DNA of 64,000 bases from Chloroflexota bacterium (GTDB taxonomy: Bacteria; Chloroflexota; UBA6077; JACCZL01). Both the position numbers and the translations under genes were made by a program. The notes beneath the pieces were generated by a model that made no database searches, was not told the origin of the DNA, and saw only the letters and a list, made by a program, of their open reading frames with translations. The stretch covers positions 16,843-80,842 of the forward strand of contig JAUJPG010000004.1 of NCBI GenBank assembly GCA_030447245.1. Reading direction: 5' to 3'. This document shows positions 8,859 to 52,369 of the stretch, in pieces; position 1 is the first letter of the stretch, and every line of letters begins with the position of its first letter.

Positions 8859-8862
8859 CGGG

Positions 8863-19558: not shown

Positions 19559-20572
<1,014 letters not shown>

Positions 20573-23339: not shown

Positions 23340-23449
23340 GCCTGTCCCTCCCGGTTTCCGTGGTGCGCACCCCGTCGATCGCGCTTCGGCGCGCACGGGT
23401 CGCCGATCCATGACCACTCTACCGCGTCGGCCTCCCCCCGGTCCCCCGT

Positions 23450-23479
23450 GGAAGTACGGGGTTTCAGTACGGGCTTTTC
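23450..23479 (-). repeat. GTAC-containing motif, copy 2 (reverse orientation)
   Basis: gaagtacggggtttcagtacgggcttttcc. Confidence 0.7.
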
Positions 23480-23482
23480 CCC

Positions 23483-23813: not shown

Positions 23814-23936
23814 CCGCGGATCCATCGCGCGCTTACCCTTGCTCGGCGGCGGCGCAGGTCACCGCCAGCGCGGCCCTCGCGAGCCGCGTCAGGCTCGTCT
23901 CGGCCTCCGATCGCACAGCGCGCACGGTCCCGTCTG

Positions 23937-24482: not shown

Positions 24483-24546
24483 AAAAGTGCCGCGGCGCTG
24501 ATGCGCTGGACCGACCAGGACGTGGTGGCCTCACCAGGTACAATGT
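24471..24546. repeat. about 70-bp repeat, copy 2 (see 18345..18413)
   Basis: Shared cgttctag...ccgaccaggacg.ggt.gc core. Confidence 0.5.
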
Positions 24547-24642
24547 AGGGGGTCGGGTGCGCGCCTGATCAGCGCCCGTTCAAGCCCGGCGACCACAGAC
24601 GCCGGGGCGCGTCCCTCTTCTGCCTCGCTGTGGCGATGTACG

Positions 24643-25170
24643 ATGCCACTCTCGCGAAATGAGGCCCAACTGCTGGCGAGGGCCGCAAAGGCCGCGGCTG
24701 ATGCGAAACGGCTGGTCGATCCAGCCCTTTCCGTCGCACTCGCCGCTCTCAAGCGGGACAAGGATCTCGGCGGGCAAGCAGCTAGGGTCAGGAACAGGAA
24801 GCGGAACGAGGATGCCTTGGGTGACGTGGGTGTCCTCGCCGAAGCGTTGGCGGAGGGGGGTCCCGTATCGAGCGCCGCCCGGTCCGCTGAGGCTCCGTCG
24901 CCTCCGGAAGCAACTGCCGACGACGGCCCCCGCCGCGATCGCAAGCCGCGCACTGTCGGTTCAGAAGCCAAGAAGCGGGTCCGCCAGCGAGACTTCAGCA
25001 GCCAACTCTTCAGACGCAGGCCGATCGAAGTGATGGACTCGATCCTCGACCTGGGCAAACGCTTGACAAAGTGCGGGGTAGCCGCGGCGATGGGCATACA
25101 CAGAGGGACCCTTGGCTTGTACCTGAGCGACGAGCAGATCGACTGGGATCAGGCGAAGCTCGACGCGTAG
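24643..25170 (+). CDS. hypothetical Ala-rich protein with possible C-terminal helix-turn-helix
   Basis: Open frame with lower GC3 than neighbours; C-terminal ILDLGKRLTKCGVAAAMGIHRGTLGLYL is HTH-like; no family recognised. Confidence 0.35.
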   Translation: MPLSRNEAQLLARAAKAAADAKRLVDPALSVALAALKRDKDLGGQAARVRNRKRNEDALGDVGVLAEALAEGGPVSSAARSAEAPSPPEATADDGPRRDRKPRTVGSEAKKRVRQRDFSSQLFRRRPIEVMDSILDLGKRLTKCGVAAAMGIHRGTLGLYLSDEQIDWDQAKLDA

Positions 25171-25276
25171 GAGAGAAGGGCAAGGCGCCGGGCCCTCGAG
25201 CGGCAGAGACAATCTGAGCGGCGATCCTAACAATCGTCGATCATCGATGGAATCCAGCAAGTTCCGACGTTCTTGA

Positions 25277-25313
25277 GGGGCATCCTGGTCTTGAAGGGAG
25301 ACCAGGATGCCCC
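25277..25313 (+). promoter_or_regulatory. perfect 14-bp inverted repeat with 9-nt loop that encloses the RBS and start codon of the RHH gene
   Basis: ggggcatcctggtc-ttgaaggga-gaccaggatgcccc; GGGAG lies in the loop and ATG 25307 in the 3' arm. Confidence 0.6.
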
Positions 25314-25522
25314 GATTCCTTCTTGAGGTCTCGGACCCCGCCTTTGAACGCCTGACCAAAGAGGCCGGGCGGTATCGGCGGTCGCTCAAGGACCAAGCGG
25401 CGTGGCTCCTCGGGGGCGTGCTGCTGGCCGCCGACGCGCCAGCGCGGGAGCTCGAGAAGATTGGCGCGTCGGCGGGTGTGAGTGCAGCTGACCAGCTAGG
25501 GGCTGGTTATGCCGCGGGGTGA
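25307..25522 (+). CDS. small ribbon-helix-helix-like DNA-binding protein (candidate antitoxin)
   Basis: 71 aa; PRFLLEVSDPAFERLTKEAGRYRRSLKDQAAWLL is consistent with a beta-strand plus two helices as in Arc/CopG/ParD proteins. Confidence 0.45.
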   Translation: MPRFLLEVSDPAFERLTKEAGRYRRSLKDQAAWLLGGVLLAADAPARELEKIGASAGVSAADQLGAGYAAG

Positions 25523-25681
25523 GCATCCACTGCCGCTCACGGTGCGGCGTGAGCTCCTCACGGAACTTTACCGTGTGCTTCTATGCCCCCCGGTCGAGGA
25601 GCAGGATGCGGTAAAGCCGCGTCACCGGGTGGACGACGCGGACCGCACAATTGTGATCCTGGACAGCGGGGCGAGCGAGTA
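25508..25681 (+). CDS. short overlapping ORF downstream of the RHH gene (possible toxin remnant)
   Basis: ATG at about 25508 overlaps the RHH stop; 57 codons, MPRGEHPLPLTVRRELLTELYRVLL...; not in the ORF track because under 60 aa. Confidence 0.2.
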
Positions 25682-26179
25682 GCCGTGTCGAACATCATCG
25701 CTATCCGACGTCCGCTCCACTCCCAGCCCGAAGTCGGTCAGGTCGTGCAGTTTCTCCGCTGTCGGTGCGAACGGCACGTCGTCGTGCTGGAGGGGGCGAG
25801 CGGCTCGATTTGACGACGTGGCGCCACAAGGTCTGGCGAGCGGGCGATCCCTCCCGCGACCGGTACCTGATCTAGATGGGCCCGCCACCCGCATCAGATG
25901 ACGTTGTGGCTAGAACCTCGACGGCGTGGACTCACAGCGCTGGATGTGCACCCATCAGATGCCTCCTCCACGGGGCAAGGGCGTCGGGGGTCTCGGCCGG
26001 GGTTGGCCAGCGCGCTCGCGCCCGCGGCCCACGGGCAAGCCGGGTCAGAGCCTCGGTTCTGTCCTGCCTTCAACCGCTCCAACCGCTGCTCGGCGGGCAG
26101 CGTGGTCCTGCTGCTCCCGCCACCGGCAGGCTATCGTCCCAGCGTCCGCAACGATCTCCGGCGGACGAAAGGAGCCGAC

Positions 26180-26557
26180 ATGGAATCGAAATCCGCCGCG
26201 CTCAACACGCCGCCAGGACAAGACGTCCCGGCGCGCTTTCCGCTGGCTGAGGCACGCACGGCGCCGCCTCAGGCTGGCCGCCGGTCGGCGCTGCTGCTGG
26301 AGCACGGGAGCCTGGAGCTACGCTACTATGCGCCGCGCGGCACCGACCCGCAGACACCGCACACCCGTGACGAGGTCTACGTCGTCGCCTCTGGCCGAGG
26401 CTGGTTCGTGCGCGCGGAAGAGCGCGTTGCGTTCGAGTGCGGCGACGCGCTGTTCGTGGCGGCCGGCGTGGAGCACCGGTTCGAAGACTTCAGCGACGAC
26501 TTCGCAACCTGGGTCATGTTCTACGGTCCAGAAGGTGGCGAGCGGCCGGCGACGTGA
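26180..26557 (+). CDS. cupin-domain protein
   Basis: HTRDEVYVVASGRGWF ... GDALFVAAGVEHRFEDF has the two-motif cupin pattern; start at MESKS inside track ORF 25898..26557. Confidence 0.65.
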   Translation: MESKSAALNTPPGQDVPARFPLAEARTAPPQAGRRSALLLEHGSLELRYYAPRGTDPQTPHTRDEVYVVASGRGWFVRAEERVAFECGDALFVAAGVEHRFEDFSDDFATWVMFYGPEGGERPAT

Positions 26558-26614
26558 CCAGTTAGCGAGGGCGTCCAGCATGGAGTCGCCGATCAAGCAG
26601 GAGTAGTGCTCGGC

Positions 26615-27064
26615 TTAGTCGGCCTTGGCCCCAGCGGCGCTTTCGGTTCTGGCCGGCGCGGGAGTTCCGCTGCCGGCATTGGACCCACCCTCGGATCTGG
26701 ACCCGCCCCCAGATTTGGACCCATTCTCCGACTTGGACCCGCCTTCGGGCTTGGCACCCGCTTCCGACTTGGCGCCCGGTTCCGACTTGGCGCTGGCGTC
26801 GGACTTGACGCCTGACTCTTTGCTCGCGGGAGCTTCCGATGCAGCGCCGTCCGCCTTGTCCGACTCCGGCTCTTTGGCCGCACTGGTGCCACGATAGTCC
26901 GTGTTGTAGAAGCCGCTGCCCTTGAACACGATGCCGGCCGGGTGGATCAATCTGCGGAGCGCACCGCCGCACGACTCACAGGTAGTGAGTGGGTCATCGC
27001 TGAAGCTCTGCCGCTTCTCGGCGACGTTGCTGCACGATTGACACTCATATGTATAGATCGGCAC
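26615..27064 (-). CDS. FmdB-family zinc-ribbon protein with Ser/Lys/Glu/Gly-rich low-complexity tail
   Basis: PIYTYECQSC...CESCGG CxxC-x-CxxC zinc ribbon starting at a GTG (about 27064); tail SKSEAGAKPEGGSKSENGSKSGGGSRSEGG. Confidence 0.7.
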   Translation of the reverse strand: MPIYTYECQSCSNVAEKRQSFSDDPLTTCESCGGALRRLIHPAGIVFKGSGFYNTDYRGTSAAKEPESDKADGAASEAPASKESGVKSDASAKSEPGAKSEAGAKPEGGSKSENGSKSGGGSRSEGGSNAGSGTPAPARTESAAGAKAD

Positions 27065-27275
27065 GCCCGGCCCTCCGCCCCACGACCACACAAAAGCGAC
27101 CAGCTCGCGAGCTGATCGCTCGTAGATTCTAAATTGAAGTATACCAGAAGTGGCGGATGAAGCCCGGATGCGCCACGGCCCGCGGGCCAGCGGCGAGCGT
27201 GTCGGCCGGGGTGGCAACCAAGGTACCATCGGCCCGAGCACTCGGTTCGGGCCGGTCGATCGAGAGAGGTGCAGC

Positions 27276-37891: not shown

Positions 37892-40402
37892 GTGGATACG
37901 CCCAACAGAGCACCCGCATGGAGCATTGGCCTGGTGATACGCGTGGTGCGTGGTGTTGCCCTGGTAGTTGGCGTCACCGCCTGGGTCGCGTACCTCGGGC
38001 GGCTGCTCCTCCGCGCGCTGCACATGCTTCAGTTGGAGGGGTATCAATCCGCGCGGTTTCTGCACTGGTCGACGAAGAAGGCGGAGCGCTGGGCGCGGAG
38101 TGACCGCGCCGCGCTCGCGGTGGTCGCGGGGGCGATCGGCCTCGCGGGGCGGTCCGCGCCTGGTGGCCGGCCGGCATTCGCCGCCGCGGTCTGGGCCGTG
38201 ATCGGGGCATGGCTGCTGCGAGGGGCGACGTTTGGAGCGGCCAAGAAGCCGCTGGTGCTGACCCCGCGGGCCAGGCGCCTACTGGCCGGCGAGGCGTTCA
38301 TAGCAAGCGTGGCGGCGATCGGGCCGGCCGCGTGGCTTGCGATCCGCGGGCGGCCAGACGCGGGGGCAGGCCTGTGCGTCGGGATCTCCGCGGCCAGCCT
38401 GTTGGTGCCGACAATCGCGGCAGGCGCGAACGTGCTGCTCTGGCCGATCGAAGAGGGGTTCCGGCGCTACTACCTGCGCGATGCGAAACGGCGCCTGCGG
38501 GCGTGCGGACCGACGGTGATCGGCGTCGCGGGCTCGTACGGCAAGACAAGCACCAAGGAGTTCATCGCCGCGATCCTGGGGCGGCAGCGACGGGTGCTCA
38601 AGGCGCCCGGGTCCTACAACACGCCGATGGGGCTATGTCGGGTGATCCGCGAGCACCTAGAGCCGGGCCACGAGCTGTTCGTCGCGGAGCTGGGCGACTG
38701 GGTACCTGGTGACATCCGCTTTCTTTGCGAACTTGTCGACCCGAAGATCGGGGTGCTGACGACGATCGGACCAGAGCACCTCGAGCGATTTAGAACCCTC
38801 GACCGGGTGGTCCAATCCAAGGCCGAGCTGATCGACGCGCTGCCGCCGGACGGGGTCGCCGTCGTCAACCAGGACGACTCGCTGGTCCGTGGGCTCGGCG
38901 AGCGGGCCTCGGCGCGTGGGCTGCGGGTCGTCCGCTACGGCCTGGGCGACGACGCCGACGTCCAGGCCCGCGACGTGCAGACGACGCGTGACGGTCTCCG
39001 GTTCGTGGTGGACGCGCAAGGCCACGGGGTCGCCGAGCTACGGGTCGGTGTCCTCGGACGGCACAACGTGTCCAACCTCCTGGCGGCGGCGGCAGTGGCG
39101 CTCCAACTGGGGATGTCGCTGGAAGACATCGCGGAGGCGGCGTCGACAATCGAGCCGGTCGAGCACCGCTTGCAGCCGATTCGTGGGACTGGTGGAGTGC
39201 TGGTGATCGACGACGCTTTCAATGCCAACCCTCGCGGAGCCGCCGAGGCGCTCGACGTCCTGGCCGAGCTGGGGACCGGCCCTGATGGCGGACGACGCAT
39301 CCTGGTGACGCCGGGGATGATCGAGCTAGCCGAGCGGGAGTGGGACGAGAACAAGGCGTTCGGGCGCAAGGCGGGCGAGGTCTGCGACGTCGTAATTCTG
39401 GTTGGTCCGAAGCGGGCCAGGCCGATCCTCGCGGGCCTCCGCGTGGCAGGCTTTCCGGCGGACCAGACCCACGTCGTACGCAACCTGGCCGAAGCCACGG
39501 AGCGCCTGCAAGGGCTGGTTCGATCAGGCGACGCGGTGCTGTTCGAGAACGACTTGCCGGACACCTACGACGAGAACGGGACGACCGACAGCCTGGCTAT
39601 GCCGCCAACCGAAACTGTCGAGGGCGAACGCCCCACCGGTTCGGTCATCGTGGACGGCCTACGGGTCACCTACCGCGAGGAGGGCGCGGAGACCGGGCGA
39701 ACACCGGTCGTCGTGCTGCACGGATGGGGAGCCAGCAGCGGGGCCGTCGTTTCGATCCAGCGATGCCTCGGAGGCGAGCGGCGGACGGTCGCGCCGGACC
39801 TGCCGGGCTTCGGCGCGAGCGACCTGCCGCCAGAGATCTGGGGCACGGCCGACTACGCCGCGGCCGTGCGCGCATTTCTGCGGGAGGTGAAGATCGAGCG
39901 GGCCAGCTTCGTCGGCCACTCGCGCGGCGGCGGGATCGCGATCTTTCTGGCGGCGACCGCGCCCGAGCTGGTGGACAAGCTGGTGCTCGTCGACAGCGTT
40001 GGCATTCGGGCGCACCGCGGTCCTGGCTATCGCGCTCGCGTGCTGGCATTCAAGGCCGCGCGGCGGGTGGTCGCCAGTCGGTGGACGCGGAGGATCCAGC
40101 CGCTTCAGGAATGGTTCGAACGGCGGTTCGGGTCGGCGGACTACCGCCAGGCGGGCGCGATGCGCGGAACCCTGGTCCGCCTTGTCAACGAAGATCTGCG
40201 GGTGCTGCTGCCGCGAATTCAGGCGCCGACGTTGCTGATCTGGGGCGACCAGGACGAGGACACGCCGATCTCGGACGGCAGACAGATGGAGGAGCAGATC
40301 CCGGATGCAGGACTGGTCGTGTTCCCGGGCGCCGGGCACTTTTCGTACGCGGACGACCCCGGCCGATTCTGCCGCGTCGTCGACCACTTCCTCAAGAACT
40401 GA
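37892..40402 (+). CDS. Mur ligase family protein (MurF-like) with N-terminal membrane segment and C-terminal alpha/beta-hydrolase domain
   Basis: VIGVAGSYGKTSTKE P-loop, GPEHLERF, HNVSNLLAAAAVA, IDDAFNANP Mur-ligase motifs; then a continuous frame into VVVLHGWGAS...FVGHSRGGGIAIFLA...GAGHFS (GxSxG nucleophile elbow and His); N-terminal 200 aa hydrophobic. Confidence 0.65.
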   Translation: MDTPNRAPAWSIGLVIRVVRGVALVVGVTAWVAYLGRLLLRALHMLQLEGYQSARFLHWSTKKAERWARSDRAALAVVAGAIGLAGRSAPGGRPAFAAAVWAVIGAWLLRGATFGAAKKPLVLTPRARRLLAGEAFIASVAAIGPAAWLAIRGRPDAGAGLCVGISAASLLVPTIAAGANVLLWPIEEGFRRYYLRDAKRRLRACGPTVIGVAGSYGKTSTKEFIAAILGRQRRVLKAPGSYNTPMGLCRVIREHLEPGHELFVAELGDWVPGDIRFLCELVDPKIGVLTTIGPEHLERFRTLDRVVQSKAELIDALPPDGVAVVNQDDSLVRGLGERASARGLRVVRYGLGDDADVQARDVQTTRDGLRFVVDAQGHGVAELRVGVLGRHNVSNLLAAAAVALQLGMSLEDIAEAASTIEPVEHRLQPIRGTGGVLVIDDAFNANPRGAAEALDVLAELGTGPDGGRRILVTPGMIELAEREWDENKAFGRKAGEVCDVVILVGPKRARPILAGLRVAGFPADQTHVVRNLAEATERLQGLVRSGDAVLFENDLPDTYDENGTTDSLAMPPTETVEGERPTGSVIVDGLRVTYREEGAETGRTPVVVLHGWGASSGAVVSIQRCLGGERRTVAPDLPGFGASDLPPEIWGTADYAAAVRAFLREVKIERASFVGHSRGGGIAIFLAATAPELVDKLVLVDSVGIRAHRGPGYRARVLAFKAARRVVASRWTRRIQPLQEWFERRFGSADYRQAGAMRGTLVRLVNEDLRVLLPRIQAPTLLIWGDQDEDTPISDGRQMEEQIPDAGLVVFPGAGHFSYADDPGRFCRVVDHFLKN

Positions 40403-41798: not shown

Positions 41799-42205
41799 AT
41801 GTGATGGGACCGTGACCACAGGGTTCTCCCCGCGGCCGCTCGGCAGATGTACACTGCCGCCGTCAGACGCGGCCGAGCCGAATGGTGAGGCCGGGTGACA
41901 GCGGCAGGCCGTTCCTTCGCGAGTCGCCGCTGGTTTTCCGCAGTTGGGGCGGCGGCCAACGCCCCGTTCGTGGTCTGGCCGGGCAGCCCGGGAGGCGCAA
42001 GCTTCTCGGGCTGTTTTCTTGTCCGCCGCCCGGGGCGCTGGCGAGGCTCGGATTGGGACATCCCTCCTGTGACCCCGTACATTTACCGGGTCAGAGCAGA
42101 CAGCGTGGTATAGAGTAGTCTCACGGCAACCGGCCACTGCCGGAGGCGTCCCGCACCCTGCGCAGGGTGCCCCCGGGGCGAGTGGCTGGTGGGGCACAGC
42201 GCCAG

Positions 42206-44542
42206 ATGGGCTCGAACCGACGACGGGACAATCTCCCCGACTTCCAATCGGCCTTCGTTGGTCGCGGGCGGCACCTTGTCGAGGTCGCGCGGCTGCTTCG
42301 GACCGAGCGGCTGGTGACCTTGACCGGGCCGCCCGGTGTGGGCAAGACACGGCTGGCGCTCCGCGTCGCGAGCACGATGAGAAGCCGGTACGCCGACGGC
42401 GTCTGGCTCGTCGAGCTGGCGGCGATCGCCGAACCGGCAATGGTGGCGCACCGAGTAGCGAGGACGCTCGCCGTACTTCCCCGGCCAGGTCGGGCCCTAC
42501 TCGACGAGCTGGCGGCGCTGCTCCAGGATCGGCGCGCTTTGCTGGTGCTCGACAACTGCGAGCATGTCCTGGACGCCTGCGCGAGACTTGCCGATCGCCT
42601 GCTGCGTGCCTGCCCTGAGCTGGCGATCCTGACGACGAGCCGCCAGTCGCTCGGGCTCGCCGGTGAGTGGGCGTGGCTGGTGCCGCCACTGTCGGCGCCA
42701 CCAGTTGGCGGGCTCGGCAACGGCGCGCCGCTGGGCGAGCGCGACGCGATCGAGCGGTATGAGGCCTTCGAGCTCTTCGTAGAGCGCGCCCGGAGAGCCT
42801 CCCCGAGCTTCGCGCTGGACCAAGGCACCGCCGCGGCGGCGGCCCAGATCTGCTGCCGCCTGGATGGACTGCCGCTCGCCATCGAGCTGGCGGCGGCTCG
42901 CACGAGCAACCTGAAGGTCGAGGAGATCGCGGCCCTGCTCGACGACCGCTTCACTCTGCTGACGGCCAGTCCGGACGCAACGCCGACCGGCCAACGGTCG
43001 CTTCGAGCGACCCTGGACTGGAGCCACGATCTGCTGTCAGAGGCGGAGCAGGTCCTGTTCCGACGGCTGGCCGTGTTCGTCGGCGGCTGGACGCTGGAGG
43101 CGGCCGAAGCGGTGTGCGCGATCGACGGCGGATTACCCTCGATCGTCGATCTGATTTCGGGCCTGGTGGACCAGTCGCTGGTGGTGGCAGATGAGCGGGG
43201 TGGCGAATTCCGGTATCGGCTACTGGAGACGCTTCGCGAGTACGGACTGGAGCGGCTGCGCGCGGCGGGCGAAGAGGAGGGCCTGCGCGACGCGCACCTC
43301 GACTGGCTGCTGCGCTTCACCGAGGATGCCGAGCCCGCGCTGCGTGGGGCACAGCAGGCCGACTGGCTGGACCGGCTCGAAGTCGAGCACGACAACCTGC
43401 GGGCGGGACTCGGCTGGTGTCTCGGGCGCGGCTCGGCAGAGTCGGGACTGCGCCTGTGCTGGGCGGTCTGGCGCTTCTGGCTGACCCGCAACCATCCCGC
43501 CGAGGGGCTGGCGTGTCTGGCGCGGGTGCTCGGCCTGGAACGGGCAAAGGCGGAGCCCGCGTTGCACTTCGCTGGACTGTTTGCCGCCGGCCGGCTTGCC
43601 TACGTGGCAGGCGATCCAGAGACCGCGCGTCGGTCGCTCGAGGAGGCGCTCGCGATCGCAAGGGAGCTGGACCACCGAGAGGATATCGCCGGCGCCCTGA
43701 CTCAGCTCGGGCATCTCGCACGCGAGCGGGGCGATTACGCCACCGCGCGACGGCTGTACGAGGAGAGCCTCTGCCTTCGGCAGGAGGCCGGTGATCGGCG
43801 ACTGATCGCGATCTCGCTCGGCAGCCTCGGGCGGGCGGCCTACGGCCAGGGCAACCTGGCCGAGGCGCGGCAGCTAGCCGAAGGGAGCATCCACCTGAGT
43901 CGCACGGCTGGCGACCCGCGCGACCTTGGGACGTTGCTCGTGTTCCTCGGCGACGTTGCCAGTGAGCAAGGCGACCGCGACGCGGCGCGGGCATACTACG
44001 CCGAGGCGTCGGCCATCATCGAGCAGCTCCGAGATCGCCAGCTCCTGGCACAGCTCCTCGAAGGTTTCGCGGCGCTCGCGGCCGACGAGGATCGAGGACA
44101 GCGGGCACTGCGCCTGGCCGGCGCGGCGGCCGGCCTGCGCGAGTCGATCGGTGTCTTGCTCCAGCGTACCGAGCGTCATCGGCTGGAGCGCCGGATCGAT
44201 CCACTCCGCCGAACACTCGGGACGGACCGCTTCATGGCCCTCTGGGCCGAGGGCCGGGCCATGCCGATCGCGGACGCCATCGGCTACGCACTCGACGTGG
44301 ATCAGGTGCCCGATGCCGCGGCGGCCGTCCGGGCCGCCGCGGCCGAGCTGGGCCTGACGCCAAGCGAGCAGCGGATCACGCTGTTGCTCGGGCAAGGATT
44401 CAGCAACCGTCACATCGCCGCGACGCTGGAGGTCTCCGAGCGGACGGTTGAGTGGCACGTGGGCAATCTCCTGGACAAGCTGGGGCTAGCGTCGCGGGTC
44501 CAGGTGGCCGTGTGGGTCGTCGAGCACGGATTGGCGGGCTGA
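42206..44542 (+). CDS. STAND-type ATPase / LuxR-family transcriptional regulator
   Basis: Walker A LTGPPGVGKTRLAL, long TPR-like helical middle region, C-terminal LuxR HTH (LTPSEQRITLLLGQGFSNRHIAATLEVSERTVEWHVGNLLDKLG). Confidence 0.75.
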   Translation: MGSNRRRDNLPDFQSAFVGRGRHLVEVARLLRTERLVTLTGPPGVGKTRLALRVASTMRSRYADGVWLVELAAIAEPAMVAHRVARTLAVLPRPGRALLDELAALLQDRRALLVLDNCEHVLDACARLADRLLRACPELAILTTSRQSLGLAGEWAWLVPPLSAPPVGGLGNGAPLGERDAIERYEAFELFVERARRASPSFALDQGTAAAAAQICCRLDGLPLAIELAAARTSNLKVEEIAALLDDRFTLLTASPDATPTGQRSLRATLDWSHDLLSEAEQVLFRRLAVFVGGWTLEAAEAVCAIDGGLPSIVDLISGLVDQSLVVADERGGEFRYRLLETLREYGLERLRAAGEEEGLRDAHLDWLLRFTEDAEPALRGAQQADWLDRLEVEHDNLRAGLGWCLGRGSAESGLRLCWAVWRFWLTRNHPAEGLACLARVLGLERAKAEPALHFAGLFAAGRLAYVAGDPETARRSLEEALAIARELDHREDIAGALTQLGHLARERGDYATARRLYEESLCLRQEAGDRRLIAISLGSLGRAAYGQGNLAEARQLAEGSIHLSRTAGDPRDLGTLLVFLGDVASEQGDRDAARAYYAEASAIIEQLRDRQLLAQLLEGFAALAADEDRGQRALRLAGAAAGLRESIGVLLQRTERHRLERRIDPLRRTLGTDRFMALWAEGRAMPIADAIGYALDVDQVPDAAAAVRAAAAELGLTPSEQRITLLLGQGFSNRHIAATLEVSERTVEWHVGNLLDKLGLASRVQVAVWVVEHGLAG

Positions 44543-44798
44543 ACGCCAGCAAACGCGACTCGACGGCTCCAATGCGCCGACTATAGACGGACCGCCGTTC
44601 GGCGACGCACCGTGCGAGAGTCCGTACCCCTACCGGCGGCCGGCGTACCTCGGGTCGTGGCGTGGCGACGCGCCCCCGCGCGCAGTGTGCCCTCCGAGGA
44701 CAGCACCCTCCAGCTGTGCTCGACCGACGCCCGGCACAGAGGACGACGCCAGATTCGAGCCTCCGATTGCCGACCGAAGGTTGCACGCCGCGTAGCGA

Positions 44799-44843
44799 AC
44801 AGTACGGAGAACCCCGTACTTAAACCCCGTACTAGTACGGGGG
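44799..44843 (+). repeat. GTAC-containing motif, copy 3, ending in perfect 18-bp palindrome CCCCGTACTAGTACGGGG
   Basis: acagtacggagaaccccgtacttaaaccccgtactagtacgggg, about 90 bp upstream of 44934. Confidence 0.7.
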
Positions 44844-44933
44844 CGTCAATGGCAGCACAGGCCGTAGAGTGGTGTCAGGACGGTGTGCCATCAAGTCGGA
44901 GCGGAAGCTCCCGCGCAATGAGGAGGATTTCTC

Positions 44934-45977
44934 GTGAAGCCTACAGGACTCGCTCGAATCGCCCTGACGGCAACGGTCGCGCTCGGCGCCATCTGGAGTG
45001 CGGGCGGCGACGGCGGGCCGAGCACATCGTTCGCCTCGCTCGAGGCGGCGTCGCACCCCGAGGCGGCGCGGCAGGTTGCGACGCCGACGGTACCCGGCCT
45101 ACCTGAGAGCGCTCCGCTGCGCGTCGTCGACACGTTCGACGCCGTCGACAAGGGCGGGCGGGTCGCGCCCGGGCCCCAGGCCATCCCGCCCAACAGGGGT
45201 GACGAGCTCGTCGTGCCGGTCGAGCCCGACGACAACACGGGGTTCACCGACCGGATCAAGCATGACCCGAGCGACCGCATCGAGGACCTGGTCACGACCA
45301 CCGGCCTGTCGGTCATCCCCGAGGCGCTCCGGCCGGGCACGCACCCCTTCCCTGACGAGCCGCCCTTCACGCCGGTCGGGCCGATGGCGAACCCGCACGT
45401 GTGGGGGATGCGCTGGGTAAGCGAGGAACTCGAGGACCGCAGGGGCTATAACGACCCATGCAGGGAAAGCAACTCGACCGACCCGGTGCGCCCGAACTCG
45501 GTCGGCTTTCGCAACGTCAACAAGGTCGACGACCTCTGCAGCCTTAACCCGTTTTACCAGCTGGCTTTCAAGTTCGACTTCAGCACGCTGCGCCAGGCCA
45601 GCTTCCTTCCGATCAGCGCCGCGCTCAAGTTCCACGAAACCGTCTATGAAGAGCGCGATTCAAACGGCAACTATGTTCCCTTCGTCGGATTCCAGAACAC
45701 TTGCTCGCTCCGGCTCGGACGGCCGAATGGGCCCTGGAACGCCCCGCACGTAGGGTACCGAGGGCTCCCGTACACCGACCCACGGGAACAGAACCGGATC
45801 GGCGAGTTCAACGACATTCTGGACTGGGTGGTCACGATGGTTCGGAATCCCGCGGAGGAGGCTAAGGGGCTGATCCTCATCGGCAAGAGCGAGGACCGGA
45901 ACCCCGACAACGCCGCCTGCATGTCCCAGATCTCGAACATCGAGCTCGTGTTCACCTACGTGATCGCGGACCGTTGA
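44934..45977 (+). CDS. secreted Cys-containing hypothetical protein, family A (intact copy)
   Basis: Signal peptide MKPTGLARIALTATVALGAIWSA; conserved LAFKFDFS, CSLRLGRP, ILDWV, GLILIGKSEDRNPDNAACMSQISNIELVFTYVIADR shared with three other copies in the window. Confidence 0.6.
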   Translation: MKPTGLARIALTATVALGAIWSAGGDGGPSTSFASLEAASHPEAARQVATPTVPGLPESAPLRVVDTFDAVDKGGRVAPGPQAIPPNRGDELVVPVEPDDNTGFTDRIKHDPSDRIEDLVTTTGLSVIPEALRPGTHPFPDEPPFTPVGPMANPHVWGMRWVSEELEDRRGYNDPCRESNSTDPVRPNSVGFRNVNKVDDLCSLNPFYQLAFKFDFSTLRQASFLPISAALKFHETVYEERDSNGNYVPFVGFQNTCSLRLGRPNGPWNAPHVGYRGLPYTDPREQNRIGEFNDILDWVVTMVRNPAEEAKGLILIGKSEDRNPDNAACMSQISNIELVFTYVIADR

Positions 45978-46014
45978 GCGCTAGCACCGTGAAGACCGTA
46001 CATCGGAGTTCGAA

Positions 46015-47376
46015 ATGCGACTGACCACGCTCACCCGGGCCGCGCTTGCGGCGACGATCGTCCTCACGCTCGGCGGGCCGGCTCGTCCGGCACGGGCGGA
46101 CGAGTTCACCGTGACGCGCACCGACGACACCACCACCTGCACCCCCGGCGACTGCTCGCTGCGCGGGGCGATCATCGCCGCCAACACCTCGGCCGGACCG
46201 GACGTGATCTTGCTGCCGGCCGGCCTCTACATCCTGACGATCGGCGGCGCGGACGGCGGCGTCCTGGCCGCCAACGACGCCCAGAAAGGGGACCTCGACA
46301 TCGTCAATGGCTCCAGCATCACCATCGTCGGGGATGGCCCCGATACGACGATCATCGACGGCAATGGCGACATGACCCTCGATCGCGTCTTCGACATCGG
46401 CGCGGGCGGCAGGCTCCAGCTCGGGGGCGCGACGATCATGAACGGCCGCGCCGGAGTCGGCTTCCAGAGCCATGCCCACGGCGCCGGCATCCACAACCAC
46501 GGCTCGCTGATCCTGCAGAACGTCGTCATCAGCGACAACCGCGTCATGCTGACCGGCTGGGGCGGGGGCGGCATCACCAACGCGGACGCGCCCCAGAAGG
46601 CCTCGGCGTCGCTGAACAACGTCACCATCAGGGACAACGAGGCTCTCGAAGACACGGGCGGTGGCGCCATCGAGAACCTGAGCTTCCTGCAGCTCGAGAA
46701 CAGCACGCTGGCCAACAATCGAGCGCGCAATGGCGGCGGGATCGAGAACAAGGGAGTCAACGCCCTGGCCGGCCTGACCAACGTGACGATCAGCGATAAC
46801 CGCGCGGTCTCCAACGGGACCCCGACCACCGGCTTCGGCGGCGGTATCTCCAACCGAGACGGCGCGACCCTCTCCATGACCCACGTGACGCTGGCCGGCA
46901 ACAGCGCGGACACCCGCGGGGGTAACCTGGCGGCGCTGGACAAGGGCAAGTCCGTGACGCCCATCAACACGATCTTCGCCGACGGCAGCCCTGCCGATTG
47001 CTTCATCGAGGCGACCGGCGGCTACGTCTCCAACGGCACCAATCTCGCGACCGACGCCAACTGCAACCTGGCCGGCGCGGGCGACCGGCCGGGCGGCCAG
47101 GTGCAGCTCGGACCGTTGGCGGACAACGGCGGCCTGACCCCGACCCGCGCGCTGCTGCCGGCATTCCCTGACCACGGCAACGAAGCGATCGACGCCTGCA
47201 ACCCGGCGTCGTCGACGGACGCCGACCAGCGCGGCGAGCCCCGTCCCAGGGACGGCGACGGCGACGGCACGGCGATCTGTGACATGGGCGCCTACGAGAT
47301 GCAGCGCGCCGAACGCGGGCATGACAACGACAACGAGAACCACGACAACGACAACCATGACAACGACAACGACTAG
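46015..47376 (+). CDS. CSLREA-domain right-handed beta-helix surface protein (choice-of-anchor-type C-terminal region) with Asp/Asn-rich tail
   Basis: Signal peptide, CSLRGAIIAAN motif, repeated N.T....N beta-helix rungs, C-terminal DNGGLTPTRALLP...AIDACNP...DGDGDGTAICDMGAYE, tail HDNDNENHDNDNHDNDND. Confidence 0.7.
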   Translation: MRLTTLTRAALAATIVLTLGGPARPARADEFTVTRTDDTTTCTPGDCSLRGAIIAANTSAGPDVILLPAGLYILTIGGADGGVLAANDAQKGDLDIVNGSSITIVGDGPDTTIIDGNGDMTLDRVFDIGAGGRLQLGGATIMNGRAGVGFQSHAHGAGIHNHGSLILQNVVISDNRVMLTGWGGGGITNADAPQKASASLNNVTIRDNEALEDTGGGAIENLSFLQLENSTLANNRARNGGGIENKGVNALAGLTNVTISDNRAVSNGTPTTGFGGGISNRDGATLSMTHVTLAGNSADTRGGNLAALDKGKSVTPINTIFADGSPADCFIEATGGYVSNGTNLATDANCNLAGAGDRPGGQVQLGPLADNGGLTPTRALLPAFPDHGNEAIDACNPASSTDADQRGEPRPRDGDGDGTAICDMGAYEMQRAERGHDNDNENHDNDNHDNDND

Positions 47377-47423
47377 AGACCTCCTGCCGAGCGTCGGCCG
47401 GGGTAAGCGGGAGGCACACGCTG

Positions 47424-48197
47424 ATGGAGACCGAACATTCGATTGTGGCGCCAGGGCATGGGCGCGACCGATCGCGGTGGCTGCGCTGGACGGCGCTGCT
47501 GGGCCTGGTGGTCGCGCTGACCAGTCTGCCGGGCGTCGGCCTGGCGGATGACGACGAGAACAAGAAGAAGGACAAGCAGACCGCGAGCCTGCGAGAGTCC
47601 AGCCAACAGCAGACGATCGGACCAATCGACGACGCCGATCGGATCAGGATCCCTGACCTGACCGAGAAGCCGGGCCTGCCGCCGGACACGGTCGCCACCC
47701 CGGTCGACAACTTTGACGATCGGGTCAGGATCCCTGACCTGACCGAGAAGTCAGGTCTGCCGCCGGACACGGTCGCCACACCGATCGACCACGACCGGGT
47801 CGAGCAGATCGGCCAGCTGGTCGGCGAGAACACCTGGACGGACCGGGCCCCGATGCCCACCTCGCGCTTCGGGCTTGGGCTGGCGGCGGCGCAAAACGGG
47901 AAGCTCTACGCCGTCGGCGGCTACAACAACGGCGGCGCGCAGGCCACGGTCGAGGAGTACGACCCGGACCTCAACACCTGGAGGGCTCGGGTCCCGCTGC
48001 CCACCCCGCGCTCCGGGCTCGGGCTGGCGGTGGCGTCCAACGGCAGGCTCTACGCCGTCGGCGGCAACAACGGCAGCGCCTTTCTGGCCACGGTCGAGGA
48101 GTACGACCCGGCCACCAACACCTGGACGGCCCGGGCCCCACTGCCCACCGCGCGCTACGCGCTCGGGCTGGCGGCGGCGCAACCCTGCAAGCTCTAG
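47424..48197 (+). CDS. Kelch-repeat protein, truncated by an in-frame stop
   Basis: Signal/TM segment, two 27-aa tandem repeats RIPDLTEK.GLPPDTVATP, then Kelch blades (GKLYAVGG...EEYDP.TNTW); TAG at 48195 replaces the Tyr of the next LYAVGG. Confidence 0.6.
   Translation: METEHSIVAPGHGRDRSRWLRWTALLGLVVALTSLPGVGLADDDENKKKDKQTASLRESSQQQTIGPIDDADRIRIPDLTEKPGLPPDTVATPVDNFDDRVRIPDLTEKSGLPPDTVATPIDHDRVEQIGQLVGENTWTDRAPMPTSRFGLGLAAAQNGKLYAVGGYNNGGAQATVEEYDPDLNTWRARVPLPTPRSGLGLAVASNGRLYAVGGNNGSAFLATVEEYDPATNTWTARAPLPTARYALGLAAAQPCKL
47640..47795. repeat. near-identical tandem repeat (2 x about 78 bp) inside the Kelch gene
   Basis: cggatcaggatccctgacctgaccgagaag... repeated with a few substitutions. 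Confidence 0.7.
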
Positions 48198-48410
48198 GCC
48201 GTCGGCGGCGACATCGGCGGCGCGCAGGCCACGGTCGAGGAGTACGACCCGGCCACCAACACCTGGACGGCCCGGGCCCCGCTGCCCACCCCCCGCTCCA
48301 GCCTCGGGCTGGCGGCGGCGCCCAACGGCAAGCTGTACGCCGTCGGCCATCGGCGGCGCGCAGGCCACCATCGAGTACGACCCGAACGCCGACACCCTGG
48401 ACCGCTGAAC
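48198..48410 (+). pseudogene. degenerate continuation of the Kelch repeats after the premature stop
   Basis: AVGGDIGGAQATVEEYDPATNTWTARAPLPTPRSSLGLAAAPNGKLYAVG then frame loss. Confidence 0.5.
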
Positions 48411-48529
48411 GCCCGCGCCGCTCGCTGCTGTTCAATCGAGCCCGCCTCGCCCATGACCCAGACCTGGCCAAGCAGCAGGGCGCCGTCCCACCCTGGTCGT
48501 TCCCGCTGTACGCAGGATGAGCGAGCACG

Positions 48530-48875
48530 GTGCGCTCGTCAGCGATCTCGACCATGACCCAGACCCGGACCTTCCGCTCACGGGCGATGATCCGTTACCC
48601 GACCGGCAACGGGGCCGTCAGGATCAGGACTGTCGGCGACGGCGAGCTGACCCAGAATGGGTTCGGCTCGCCAGCGAAGTCGACAGGAGGGCAAGCCGCG
48701 CAACGCGGTGCCCGACTCTCGCACTCGGTGCCCGCCTTCCGCGTCAACCGGATGATCCGCTACTGATGCCAACAATGGCGTCCTGCTGCGCGGCTCCGAC
48801 GAGACGCTTTGGACCCAGGACAGCGCGTGCGTCTCCAACATCAGGCTCTCGTTCACCTACGAGATCTCCGATTAG
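48530..48875 (+). pseudogene. family-A C-terminal remnant
   Basis: Ends ...DSACVSNIRLSFTYEISD, matching the AACMSQISNIELVFTYVIAD C-terminus; upstream part degenerate with internal duplications. Confidence 0.5.
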
Positions 48876-48912
48876 CAGCCCTCGGAGACGCGTCTCGGCG
48901 CGTCCAACGGCG

Positions 48913-48947
48913 AAAACCCCGTACTAAAAGCCCGTACTAGTACGGGG
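48913..48947 (+). repeat. GTAC-containing motif, copy 4, ending in palindrome CCCGTACTAGTACGGG
   Basis: aaaaccccgtactaaaagcccgtactagtacgggg, between the family-A remnant and the CARDB-like gene. Confidence 0.7.
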
Positions 48948-49048
48948 ACGCCGGAGCGCGGTGCCGTATCGTGGTCCCAGGGCACCGCGGGTGCGCGCCG
49001 AACGGGTGCGCGGTCGCCTCGCACCGCGGTTCGGGGGAGGATCTGAGG

Positions 49049-49480
49049 ATGACGCGATCTCCGTGGCAGCGGCGGCTGCTCTCGGCGCTGCTGGCCGCCA
49101 GCGTCGTGGCAGCGGGACTGCCCGGCGAGAGCTGGGCGCAGGCCCGACCGGACCTGGAGCTAACCTACGGCGGCTTATTGCCCGACAAGCTCCGACTCGT
49201 CAAGTTCACGGTCAAGAACGTCGGCACTGCGCCCTCGTCAGCGACCAATAAGGTCGGGGTGATTACCTCCGAGCCCGAGCCGACGCCGTCGTTCCAAGGG
49301 CTCGACCTGCCGCCCCTCAAGCCGGGAGAGAGCAAGGACGTGTTCTACACCCTTGCCGCCGACTGCAACGGGCACGTCGTCCAGGCGCTGGTCAACGACC
49401 CGCTTGACCTGAACACAGCGAACAACGCTGTCGAGGACAAGCAGGGTCTGCTCGGGCGCACCGGTCGCCACGTCGCCTGA
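49049..49480 (+). CDS. small secreted CARDB-like (Ig-fold) protein
   Basis: Signal peptide MTRSPWQRRLLSALLAASVVAAGLPGESWA after a GGGGGAGGA RBS; LVKFTVKNVGTAPS...ANNAVED resembles a CARDB domain. Confidence 0.5.
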   Translation: MTRSPWQRRLLSALLAASVVAAGLPGESWAQARPDLELTYGGLLPDKLRLVKFTVKNVGTAPSSATNKVGVITSEPEPTPSFQGLDLPPLKPGESKDVFYTLAADCNGHVVQALVNDPLDLNTANNAVEDKQGLLGRTGRHVA

Positions 49481-49510
49481 AGACCCGTTTACGGTCGAAG
49501 ACTACGCCAC

Positions 49511-50203
49511 GTGCGCCACCTGCAACGTGCCGGGCGGAGTTTCGACCCGGGCCTGCACACGCTGTCCCTCCGCCGGGCGGCCTTCAAGACGCTGAGACGC
49601 CACAGGGTCGAGGGCGATTGCTACATCGGGCACGAAATCGTCGACGAGGCGCAGAACCCGCCCTTTCCACTCATGGGCGGCACCGGAATATCAGTTCTGA
49701 GAGCCCCGATCTTAACTCGTGACTGTCAGACTAATGGTGTCTGGCACGCGGCGTTCAGGTTCAACCTGTCCGAAATCCGGGGGCGGTGGGCGGCCGGGCG
49801 GTTGTCCGTGCTCACCATGGAGCTGACATTCGAAGAGACTCCGTACCTCTCGTCCCTCGACGGCATCACTGGCAAGAGGGAGTTCATGATTAACCTCTGG
49901 CGTCCGCCCACCTTCGACTTTAGTCAGCACGCGCCGACCGAGACCTGCTGGCCGCGGCTGGCCCGTCCGACGGTCGACTGGAGCCGCACGGGCATCGTGG
50001 TCCCGAACGACGTCCTCCTTGAGGCGGGACAGATCGGCACCTTCCCGCTGCTGCATCAGATCGGCGATATGCTGCGCTACCCGGAGAACGACGGGCTCGG
50101 ATTCCTGATCCTCGGCCACAACGAGGAGATGCACTTCAACGACGCGGAGTGCGTCTCGAAGATCGACAACGTCACACTCAACGTGACCTACCACGTCCAC
50201 TAA
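49511..50203 (+). CDS. family-A paralogue (divergent, no obvious signal peptide in the called frame)
   Basis: AFRFNLSEIRG, ETCWPRLARPTVDWSRTG, GFLILGHNEEMHFNDAECVSKIDNVTLNVTYHVH align with the other family-A copies; may be fused to or frameshifted from the upstream CARDB ORF. Confidence 0.55.
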   Translation: MRHLQRAGRSFDPGLHTLSLRRAAFKTLRRHRVEGDCYIGHEIVDEAQNPPFPLMGGTGISVLRAPILTRDCQTNGVWHAAFRFNLSEIRGRWAAGRLSVLTMELTFEETPYLSSLDGITGKREFMINLWRPPTFDFSQHAPTETCWPRLARPTVDWSRTGIVVPNDVLLEAGQIGTFPLLHQIGDMLRYPENDGLGFLILGHNEEMHFNDAECVSKIDNVTLNVTYHVH

Positions 50204-50291
50204 CGCTGAAGCGCGCGAGGCCAGCCGGCAGGACAATCGGCCAGGGCGCCGAGCACGACAGCGTCGCCGCGCACGCACCTGGGGCAGGGAG

Positions 50292-51797
50292 ATGATGATG
50301 CAGGCATCCGAGGTGGAGTCACGGCCGTGGGCGACGGTGCCGGGGCCGCTCGACCGGGCGAGCTTCTTCGAGGAGCAGGCCCGGCATCGGCGGTCGACCT
50401 GGCGGCTGACGGCGCTCTGCCTGGCGGCGGTGGTGCTGATGGGGCTGGTGGTGAGCGTCGTCGTGACGCCGCTGCTGATGGCGCAGATCGGCATCACCCT
50501 CGCGGTGCTCGGAATCGTGCTGCCGGTCCCAGACGTTCTGAAGGCCATTCCGAACGGGTACGCCGATCTGATCGCCCCGATGATGCATCAGGATCAGCGT
50601 CCGGCGACCTTCGGACAGATCGTCGTCGGCTGGGCCTTGTTGCTCGGACCGGGCGTGGCGGTGATGCTCCTGATCTCGTTCTGGCTGTGGTCGCTCTTCC
50701 TGCGGGCCGGGGTTGGCGGCGCGCTGCTCGCGCTGGGGGCACGTGCGCCGCGGCCCGATGACCTCGAGGAGCAACAGCTCGTCAACGTCGTCGCCGAGAT
50801 GGCCATCGCGGCCGGGCTGCCGCCTCCCCAGGTCGTGCTGCTCGACTCGGACGTGCCGAACGTGGCGGTCATTGGCTCGGGGCCGGACGACGCGACCGTG
50901 GTCGTCTCGCGGCGACTGCTGGATGAGTTCGACCGGGACCAGACCCAGGCGGCGCTCGGCCACCTGATTGGCTCGATCGGCAATGGCGACCTACGCATCG
51001 CCTTTGCGATCGTGTCGGTGTACCAGACCTTTGGCCTGCTGATGACGCTGCTCGACGCGCCGTTCACTGGAGCCGCTCGCTCCACGATCGGCCGCACGCT
51101 GCGTTTCGCCCTGCGTCGACCGGACCGCGACGCGGCCGGCGAGGCCGAGCGGGTGACGGCGCTCTTCTCCCAGACGTTCACGTCGGCACGGCTCGACGAG
51201 ATCGGCAAGTTCCTGGAGCCCGATCCAGACACCTGGCTGGGTCGGCTCGACCAGCGCACCGTCATCTTCCGCGGGATTCGGATCGCCGTCTTGATGCCGC
51301 TGCTGTTTGCGAACCTGTTCAGCAAGATCGTCTTGCTGGTGTTGATGCCCCTTCTGGTTGGCCCGTTGATCGCGCTGGTCTGGCGATCACGCCGCTACCT
51401 GGCGGATTCCACGGCCGTCCAGCTCACCCGCAATCCCGACGGGATGGCCGCCGCGCTGGTCGAGCTGCTCCAAAAGGGCGGGCTGCCGCCCGGCAGCAAG
51501 TGGTCGGCCCACCTGTTCGTCGTGGGCACTGAGGTCGCCCGAGAACAGGCCCAGCGTACGCTGGCGGCGAAGCTGCGAGGGATCGGGGAGGCCAATGCCG
51601 GCAGACCGCTCTCTGAGCGCCTCACCGCGGGCGTCAGGATGGCCGGCGAGGCGATGCGCGGGGCGAATGAGGCCGAGGCGGCAGACGCGGGCACCTTTGC
51701 CGAAGAGAACTCGATTCTGCTGAACTTCCACCCGCCCCTGCGCAAGCGGCTCGAGCGGCTGCGACTCCAGGGCGCGACCATCAATCTGCACGCGTAA
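50292..51797 (+). CDS. M48/HtpX-like membrane protein lacking the HExxH zinc site
   Basis: TM helices; PNVAVIGSGPDDATVVVSRRLL aligns with HtpX NAFATG...VAVSTGLL, but the active-site position reads ALGHLIGSIGNGDL where HtpX has AHEISHIANGDM. Confidence 0.6.
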   Translation: MMMQASEVESRPWATVPGPLDRASFFEEQARHRRSTWRLTALCLAAVVLMGLVVSVVVTPLLMAQIGITLAVLGIVLPVPDVLKAIPNGYADLIAPMMHQDQRPATFGQIVVGWALLLGPGVAVMLLISFWLWSLFLRAGVGGALLALGARAPRPDDLEEQQLVNVVAEMAIAAGLPPPQVVLLDSDVPNVAVIGSGPDDATVVVSRRLLDEFDRDQTQAALGHLIGSIGNGDLRIAFAIVSVYQTFGLLMTLLDAPFTGAARSTIGRTLRFALRRPDRDAAGEAERVTALFSQTFTSARLDEIGKFLEPDPDTWLGRLDQRTVIFRGIRIAVLMPLLFANLFSKIVLLVLMPLLVGPLIALVWRSRRYLADSTAVQLTRNPDGMAAALVELLQKGGLPPGSKWSAHLFVVGTEVAREQAQRTLAAKLRGIGEANAGRPLSERLTAGVRMAGEAMRGANEAEAADAGTFAEENSILLNFHPPLRKRLERLRLQGATINLHA

Positions 51798-51811
51798 GGA
51801 GGGACCGACCG

Positions 51812-52369
51812 ATGGAGCTGTTGATCGTCCTGGCGGTGGTGGCGTTGCTGGCGTTCTACCTGGTGAGCGTCTACAACGGCCTGATCGGCAAGCGGAACCG
51901 GGTCAGGAACGCCTGGTCACAGATCGACGTGCAGCTGAAGCGTCGGCACGACCTGATCCCCAACCTCATCAACGCCGTCAAGGGCTATCTGGCTCACGAG
52001 CGGGGAGTGCTGGAGAGCGTCACTCGCGCCCGCGCGGAGGCGATCGCGGCCGGCAATGACGTCCCCGCGCGAGCGGCGGCAGAAGGCGAGCTGACCCGGA
52101 CGGTACGCTCGTTGTTCGCGGTGGCCGAAGCCTATCCGGATCTGAAGGGGAACCAGAACATGCTGGCCCTGCAGGAGGAGCTGAGCTCGACCGAGAACAG
52201 GGTCGCCTTCTCGCGCCAGCACTACAACGATTCGGTGATGGCGTACAACACCGCCCGTGAGACGCTTCCGGCCAGCCTCTTCGCCCCGGCGCTCGGCTTC
52301 GGTGCGGAGCCCCTGTTCACGCTCGAGGACCCAGTCGCCGAGCGCGGCGTGCCACAGGTGCAGTTCTAG
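51812..52369 (+). CDS. lemA: LemA family protein
   Basis: N-terminal TM helix and VYNGLIGKRNRVRNAWSQIDVQLKRRHDLIPNL signature. Confidence 0.85.
   Translation: MELLIVLAVVALLAFYLVSVYNGLIGKRNRVRNAWSQIDVQLKRRHDLIPNLINAVKGYLAHERGVLESVTRARAEAIAAGNDVPARAAAEGELTRTVRSLFAVAEAYPDLKGNQNMLALQEELSSTENRVAFSRQHYNDSVMAYNTARETLPASLFAPALGFGAEPLFTLEDPVAERGVPQVQF

Follow-up and report, generated by a model that had tools for sequence, protein, structure and literature searches.

A STAND-LuxR regulator and its predicted regulon of secreted proteins around the rare family A in a Chloroflexota genome

The regulator gene and the cluster downstream of it

We analysed 64,000 nucleotides from a Chloroflexota bacterium (GenBank assembly GCA_030447245.1, contig JAUJPG010000004.1, positions 16,843 to 80,842 of the forward strand; this whole stretch is called the window). 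Here a STAND-LuxR regulator gene is followed by a same-strand cluster of genes for secreted proteins, and we suggest that the regulator probably activates them from promoters marked by a repeated, palindrome-bearing module. An earlier note on this DNA had described an ATPase-TPR-LuxR regulator at 42206..44542 and, behind it on the same strand, family A, a CSLREA protein, a Kelch-repeat protein, a CARDB-like protein and a second family A gene, with a palindrome in two of the intergenic regions. The domain matches bear out the regulator, every listed gene is present at its coordinates, and the core of the palindrome, CCGTACTAGTACGG, is found exactly twice.

The regulator gene (42206-44542, plus strand, with an alternative GTG start at 42167) encodes 778 aa in the order STAND ATPase (AAA_22/NB-ARC), winged helix, TPR and LuxR/GerE helix-turn-helix (HTH), as evidenced by Pfam and NCBIfam profile matches. 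In Pfam it scores 38.2 bits for AAA_22 (cut-off 27), 25.3 bits for NB-ARC (cut-off 23.5), 47.9 bits for TPR_MalT (cut-off 45), 65 bits for TPR_12 and 51 bits for GerE (PF00196, residues 730-783, cut-off 23.5). Walker A (GPPGVGKT) and Walker B (LLVLDNCEH) are read in its sequence, and the recognition helix is VSERTVEWHVGNLL. Hence, on every feature open to test, namely the ATPase, the TPR sensor and the GerE HTH, the regulator fits the LAL/MalT-like class. It has more than 8000 homologues, the top ones at 47-53% identity, and the top matches are from metagenome-assembled genomes named Chloroflexi, Anaerolineae, Armatimonadota or Rubrobacter. It is the sole gene of its kind within the window, the GC content of which is ~68%. 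Two more specific assignments were rejected. As a MalT equivalog the protein reaches only 34 bits against the NF003420 cut-off of 537, with the alignment limited to the HTH; as an anti-phage STAND (Avs-like) system it has only generic TPR, HTH and P-loop matches in PADLOC and none that is specific.

The first gene of the cluster, family A1 (famA; 44934-45977, plus), is intact; its product begins with a signal peptide, has a Pro-rich linker and carries the famA beta-sandwich domain at its C-terminus. The gene for a CSLREA/choice-of-anchor-Q secreted protein (46015-47376, plus) starts 37 bp past A1, is also intact and ends in an acidic DN-rich tail. It scores 55.7 bits for choice_anch_Q (NCBIfam, cut-off 25); CSLREA_Nterm, at 22.8 bits, is slightly under its cut-off of 25, and the CSLRGAI motif is present. 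The fold of this protein is presumably a beta-helix.

The next gene, with Kelch repeats (47424-48408, plus; Pfam Kelch_1 E = 7e-25), is disrupted. Its open reading frame (ORF; 47424-48197) is broken by an in-frame TAG at 48195-48197, which gives KL*AVGG where its own repeats have KLYAVGG, and the repeats run on past the TAG and a frameshift near 48345 up to ~48408. Just ~3.9 blades are retained, as 144-bp tandem repeats, and the gene is a pseudogene or an assembly error. Its signal peptide and acidic/lysine-rich leader LPGVGLADDDENKKKDK (47496-47606) are common to the N-termini of the CARDB-famA proteins P0136 and P0140, encoded on unrelated metagenome contigs. The likeness suggests that one leader, used for export or anchoring, has been exchanged between different passenger domains. 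Behind the Kelch gene, comparison with famA C-termini identifies one or more decayed family A remnants (48410-48875, plus), which are spread over several frames and end in CVSNIRLSFTYEISD and a stop.

The last two annotated genes, CARDB (49049-49480; 24.4 bits in Pfam, cut-off 22.7) and family A2 (49511-50203; related to A1 via a common profile), together make up an ancestral CARDB-famA gene (49049-50203, plus). We regard them as one split gene because they share one frame, with only the TGA at 49478-49480 between them, and because fused relatives align with them end to end. In tblastn P0134 and P0136 match 49088-50197 in one frame, through the stop, and P0134 aligns to 49115-50197 across the TGA with 41% identity over 369 residues. 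P0134, P0136, P0140 and P0141, all from other organisms, are single polypeptides of signal peptide, CARDB and famA. The CARDB-A2 linker DPFTVEDYATCATCNVPGG is readable in another frame only, where P0137 matches 49464-49532 (tblastn).

Every product of the cluster has an N-terminal signal-like sequence. About half of the listed genes are disrupted, and the intact targets in the cluster are A1 and the CSLREA gene only. Recoding of TAG was considered and rejected: two in-frame TAGs (48195-48197 and, on the minus strand, 24141-24143) both replace a conserved Tyr (TAC to TAG), but TAG is an ordinary stop and terminates 15 of the 36 ordinary genes of the window, so the in-frame TAGs are nonsense mutations or assembly errors.

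A repeated module upstream of the secreted-protein genes

The palindrome core lies at 44827-44840 and 48932-48945, with 0.05 exact occurrences expected in the window. The full palindrome CCCCGTACTAGTACGGGG is 18 bp long and sits in two intergenic regions. For the half-site CCCGTACT the window has 10 occurrences where 0.96 are expected, and none of 100 shuffles reached 10. The palindrome belongs to a larger module, in which CCCGTAC stands as two direct repeats with a period of 13 bp and is joined by an inverted half-site and by a TAnnnT 36-39 nt downstream. Alignment gives the module consensus GAAAAsCCCGTACT-nAAAsCCCGTACT-(AGTA/TCCA)yGGGG, followed ~20 nt later by GCsGTAkmsTGGT. A profile of the core recovers exactly four strong sites in the window (nhmmer E = 5e-12 to 9e-8). 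All four are equally oriented relative to the genes and stand upstream of members of one paralogous gene set.

Module 1 (44806-44870, plus; E = 5e-12) precedes A1. Its repeats start at 44813 and 44826, CCCCGTACTAGTACGGGG occupies 44825-44842, and the -10-like TAGAGT is at 44865-44870. Module 2 (48911-48972, plus; E = 1.6e-11) precedes CARDB, with repeats starting at 48918 and 48931, the palindrome at 48930-48947 and the -10-like TATCGT at 48967-48972. Module 3 (23416-23481, minus; repeats starting at 23473 and 23460; aligned core 23443-23481; E = 2.9e-11) precedes a fragmented Asp-box protein; its inverted half is shrunk to CCCCGT-N6-ACGGGG, and TAGAGT follows 39 nt downstream. Module 4 (22018-22088, minus; aligned 22041-22088; E = 9e-8) lies upstream of the CSLREA2 pseudogene and has three half-site-like units, with CCCCGT-N6-ATGGGG and TAGACT 36 nt downstream. 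A weak fifth site (42072-42116, plus; E = 0.61) is found upstream of the regulator gene, where the imperfect palindrome GACCCCGTACATTTACCGGGTC is accompanied by TAGAGT 37 nt past the start of CCCGTAC. With low confidence, this site is predicted to be a promoter autoregulated by the regulator.

Together with the sites of other contigs described below there are 10 sites, from four loci and lineages, and in every one of them a TAnnnT begins 36-39 nt past the proximal repeat, against a background of 0.3-0.9% at that offset. The repeat period is 12-14 bp in 8 of the 9 two-repeat sites and 22 bp at the CSLREA2 site, and the site upstream of the regulator has a single repeat. A promoter scan found no sigma-70-like -35/-10 pair in 44400-50400. 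If TAnnnT is the -10 hexamer, the proximal palindrome would be centred at about -42 and the distal repeat would lie at about -60. Rfam and tRNA scans of the window gave no match.

The second, decayed locus

Modules 3 and 4 belong to a second locus at 19-24.5 kb, on the minus strand; hence the motif-marked set spans two loci and is mostly decayed. The family A3 fragment (23940-24461, minus), located just upstream of the module-marked genes there, is a famA domain only, with the in-frame TAG at 24141-24143 at the conserved Tyr, and its closest relative is P0002. The fragmented secreted protein behind module 3 (22091-23339, minus) has S-x-D-x-G-x-T-W (Asp-box) motifs, which were read by eye; the Pfam scan gave no match for it. 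The CSLREA2 pseudogene (19042-21765, minus) is recognised by tblastn matches at 20929-21747 and 19042-19431 and is split by an element similar to insertion sequence (IS) IS630.

This IS630-like element (19469-20901) is 1433 bp long and has perfect 14-bp terminal inverted repeats, GTGGGTCAGTTCTC and GAGAACTGACCCAC. Its own transposase frames are frame-shifted. Similar DNA is found on Deinococcus and Microvirga plasmids, where it is annotated as a transposase and helix-turn-helix pair. Both the element and the second locus lie within ~9 kb (17700-27100) that are nearly devoid of intact ORFs with coding-type bias in third-position GC (GC3). This stretch, which has a gene for a GH2 glycosidase and one for a cupin at its borders, includes a small HTH-like ORF (24643-25170) that has no match in the Pfam scan, and looks like a decaying or variable region.

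Recurrence in other contigs and variants of the operator

Regulator and cluster co-occur in relatives, the point on which the earlier note had staked its reading. Given enough flanking DNA, the arrangement recurs: three contigs (L006, L013 and L014) have famA genes right behind STAND-LuxR genes, in the same orientation. In L006 (GCA_973843005.1) a gene for a 771-aa STAND-LuxR protein, 48% identical to that of the window, is followed by a same-strand array with 8 famA-domain ORFs. A tandem pair of STAND-LuxR genes precedes CARDB-famA genes in both L013 (Logan assembly) and L014 (JGI metagenome). In a further famA contig, L009, there is hardly any sequence upstream. The syntenic locus, L010, belongs to the genome of L006; its gene order is phosphorylase, BipA, spermidine synthase, a Mur-ligase/hydrolase fusion, Ddl (73% identity) and then a regulator (48%).

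The regulator-to-cluster spacers of L006, L013 and L014 show the same motif geometry as the window. In L006 the spacer reads AAAACCCCGTACC-GCGGC (N5)-CCCCGTGCTAGCACGGGG, with the layout of the window module. Compared with the window palindrome, an A-to-G change in one arm is matched by a T-to-C change in the other, so that the symmetry is kept. The L013 and L014 spacers read GGAAATACCTAC-cgctc-TACCTAC-TTTCGGGG, and that of L010 reads CCGGTAC-N7-CCGGTATTTTTACCGG. The helix VSERTVEWHV (window and L006) is paired with CCCGTrC, ISELTAETHV (L013 and L014) with TACCTAC repeats and ISPRTAEWRV (L010) with CCGGTA repeats, and the three groups obey the same spacing rules. Recognition helix and repeat differ in parallel across these three groups, which is suggestive for so small a number.

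The famA array of L006 also contains, at 7078-7371, a gene for a 97-aa stand-alone GerE protein, whose helix, VSERTVEWHVGNVL, almost matches the one in the window regulator. As judged from this likeness, it could be a competitor or a co-regulator at the same operator.

Family A

Family A is rare. A profile search of 1.84 billion (1.84e9) representative proteins gave 75 clusters at E <= 1e-3. A word-indexed search of 5.8 billion proteins gave the famA protein itself and one fragment only, and a wider alignment gave 3 proteins only. Profile searches found no famA match in Pfam, in NCBIfam (E <= 0.01) or among PDB sequences, and exact look-ups of proteins P0001 and P0037 returned no record. The family has the conserved motifs GxxLxGxNE...C.S, with one invariant Cys and a second, nearly invariant one. 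Its usual partner is CARDB, and it has no attached catalytic domain.

The predicted famA beta-sandwich superimposes on CBM96/DNRLRE modules (PDB 7vbo and 8wab). However, the sequence identity to these two is just 10-11%, the NCBIfam and PDB-sequence searches gave nothing relevant that would place famA in CBM96/DNRLRE by sequence, and famA differs from that family in its own conserved motifs, its two Cys and its CARDB partner. Our best guess from the predicted fold is that famA is a non-catalytic domain that binds glycans or other ligands. The CARDB and CSLREA/choice-of-anchor-Q families have no assigned function. The products of the window resemble them in scoring above the CARDB and choice-of-anchor-Q cut-offs, in their signal peptides and in their occurrence in paralogous arrays. 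The literature searched gave no description of the fixed CARDB-famA fusion or of its link to STAND-LuxR genes.

Proposed mechanism

We suggest that the adjacent STAND/LAL-type LuxR regulator probably activates the module-bearing promoters as an ATP-dependent multimer on an array of half-sites. The TPR arm would sense a ligand and trigger the ATP-dependent multimerisation. The multimer would then bind the CCCGTAC half-site array, with its two direct repeats 13 bp apart, the promoter-proximal one of which is completed to the 18-bp palindrome. Since the promoters have no recognisable -35 element and the palindrome would be at about -42, we propose activation of class II type rather than repression. 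The multiple half-sites, the predicted -42 position and the conserved adjacency lend indirect support to activation of neighbouring genes by such a multimer.

Module 1 would drive famA1, the CSLREA gene and the Kelch pseudogene, and module 2 the split CARDB-famA gene. Modules 3 and 4 would have served the decayed paralogues which they precede at 22-23.5 kb, and the weak fifth site may autoregulate the regulator gene. The predicted output consists of non-catalytic-looking modules with signal peptides: the CBM96/DNRLRE-like beta-sandwich, CARDB, the putative beta-helix, Kelch repeats and Asp-box motifs. Judging from these domains, the set is most plausibly inducible, located outside the cell or on its surface, and used to bind glycans or other ligands. 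The set appears to turn over fast in this genome by duplication, nonsense mutations, frameshifts and IS insertion. The proposal of the earlier note, that this may be one regulated extracellular module, thus holds in part. A dedicated secreted-protein regulon is supported by the palindrome, the recurrent adjacency and the spacer geometry; one intact module is not, as genes are disrupted and the motif set reaches to 19-24.5 kb.

This arrangement resembles that of LAL regulators and MalT. The regulator has an N-terminal P-loop STAND ATPase, a MalT-like TPR sensor and a C-terminal GerE/LuxR HTH, and its gene adjoins its presumed targets. MalT boxes are multiple short half-sites in direct and inverted orientations, and the presumed target promoters here likewise carry several short half-sites, direct and inverted. 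However, the regulator is shorter, with 778 aa, its ATPase is best scored by AAA_22/NB-ARC and not by AAA_16, and its presumed half-site, CCCGTAC, bears no relation to the MalT box. The presumed targets are uncharacterised secreted proteins, unlike sugar catabolism or secondary-metabolite genes.

The promoter geometry resembles that of LuxR and TraR. Class II activation by LuxR-type proteins at the lux box has geometry of this kind. Under the assumed -10 hexamer the 18-bp palindrome would be centred at about -42 and would overlap the position of the absent -35 element, and the DNA-binding domain of the regulator is of GerE type. However, the autoinducer-binding domain is absent here, the additional upstream direct repeat suggests that more than a dimer would bind, and the position of the module relative to the transcription start is deduced in our case from TAnnnT.

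Points against the mechanism and alternative explanations

Several findings weigh against this mechanism or limit it. The four window copies are alike over ~100 bp, beyond the core elements, so that part of the likeness reflects recent duplication and not selection. Apart from famA1 and the first CSLREA gene, no target is intact; most of the regulon may have lost its function here, or there may be assembly errors. One short famA contig (L008) has a glycerol kinase gene upstream and no regulator. In L010 the positional orthologue of the regulator, P0018, precedes a different secreted Gly-rich protein and not family A. The genome GCA_973843005.1 has at least five further paralogues that share the recognition helix, and several paralogues in L012 share VSERTVEWHV; the adjacent regulator may therefore be one binder among several, or may not bind there at all. 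The scans of genome and metagenome contigs turned up neither the motif nor family A. With CCCGTACTNAAANCCCGTACT the genome_contigs collection, which does not include the source genome, gave five unrelated chance-like matches (Streptomyces, Agathobacter and others); metagenome_contigs gave no match to a 21-base motif pattern and no confirmed relative with the famA alignment.

The paralogues lead to the most serious competing explanation, which we hold to be unlikely, though still deserving of attention. The motif would then be a real operator that is bound by another factor, either a paralogous STAND-LuxR regulator or a small, free-standing GerE protein with the same helix, and the adjacent regulator would be linked to the cluster by ancestry or answer another signal. 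In GCA_973843005.1 several paralogues and the 97-aa GerE protein within the famA array do share the helix SERTVEWHV, and P0018 in L010 has both another helix and another target. Yet the window holds one such regulator only. Moreover, in four loci the motif occupies the spacer right after the regulator gene, and the repeat sequence differs where the helix of the adjacent regulator differs. We regard it as very unlikely that the repeats are inherited sequence with no present function, promoters that were copied along with paralogous genes by recent duplication only. Such copying would explain why three of the four window copies are alike beyond the core, e.g. into GTGCGCGCCGAA, and agrees with surrounding genes that are paralogous and in many cases decaying. 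However, other lineages keep the architecture (repeat period 12-14 bp, TAnnnT at +36 to +39) with a different repeat and non-aligning flanks, and the palindrome of L006 has changed symmetrically.

That symmetric change in L006, like the G-U pair at the CSLREA2 site, would also fit a conserved stem, and the palindromes might act as RNA or DNA hairpins, i.e. terminators, transcript stabilisers or repetitive extragenic palindromic (REP)-like intergenic elements. The stems fold well: their energies are -21 to -33 kcal/mol, and three of the four copies have z-scores between -3.4 and -4.9. Nevertheless, we find this explanation highly improbable. The palindromes stand anywhere from 0 to ~456 nt from the preceding stop codon but at a fixed distance from TAnnnT, L013 and L014 keep the direct repeats without a comparable palindrome, and the palindromes have no Rfam match. 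An intrinsic terminator was rejected because the sense strand lacks a T-tract, and the terminator scan called no such site there on the plus strand. The most improbable explanation of all is a promoter for a sigma factor of the extracytoplasmic function (ECF) type, in which GAAAAC would be read as -35 and the CGTA within the following repeat as -10. ECF promoters of the type TGAAAC-N16-CGTA exist, and GAAAAC-N15-CGTA resembles this pattern, with spacing one base shorter. However, the inverted half-site and its symmetric change in L006 would have no role in a sigma promoter, the sites of L013, L014 and L010 have the same repeat geometry without AAC/CGT pairs, and no sigma or anti-sigma gene is found among the window genes scanned.

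Wider reading

Activation by the adjacent regulator would thus make the locus, in our view, a probable ordinary regulator-regulon unit around a rare, uncharacterised, sugar-binding-like family. Its scope is limited: cluster-situated activation by LAL proteins is already well-known logic, the regulator class is likewise known, and much of the regulon is degraded here. New are the target set, the predicted operator grammar and the rare secreted domain family, mostly fused to CARDB, whose CBM96-like predicted fold would point to glycan binding. If the mechanism is correct, it provides a concrete unit for an uncultivated and poorly studied lineage, with a predicted operator, promoter geometry and target set. 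The parallel natural variation of helix and half-site could help to decode the DNA specificity of GerE-type proteins.

A broader idea is offered as speculation, and we think it rather doubtful. STAND-LuxR paralogues would have expanded in this probably Chloroflexota-like lineage, and each would have its own variant of one operator design, a pair of 7-mer direct repeats spaced by 12-14 bp (near -50 and -63) to which an inverted partner may or may not be added. This 7-mer would vary together with the helix, and each paralogue would switch on its own fast-evolving secreted array, e.g. CARDB and CBM96-like famA. If true, this would be a modular, diversifying system that tunes the extracellular binding repertoire of the cell.

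Neighbouring genes and further observations

Directly after family A2 there are genes for an M48/HtpX-like membrane peptidase (501 aa) and a LemA-family protein (50292-52369). The pair was rejected as part of the module, to which it is probably unrelated: neither gene carries the motif, and the syntenic locus L010 lacks the pair. On the other side of the regulator, immediately upstream of the D-Ala-D-Ala ligase gene, Mur-ligase middle and C-terminal domains are fused to an alpha/beta-hydrolase both in the window (37892-40402) and in L010 (5830-8343), with 59% identity.

Two more STAND-LuxR paralogues are found in L011 (3542-16040), where they flank genes for a GAF protein, an S8 peptidase, a radical SAM enzyme, small ORFs and an ABC transporter with a domain binding cyclic nucleotides (cNMP); this looks like a peptide natural-product cluster. 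L012 carries four or five tandem STAND-LuxR paralogues, some of them fragmented at short tandem-repeat tracts (4208-4539 and 8203-9096). These tracts face their own reverse complements, (GACGATG)n...(CATCGTC)n and (GGACGGAG)n...(CTCCGTCC)n, and would form hairpins within the coding sequence.

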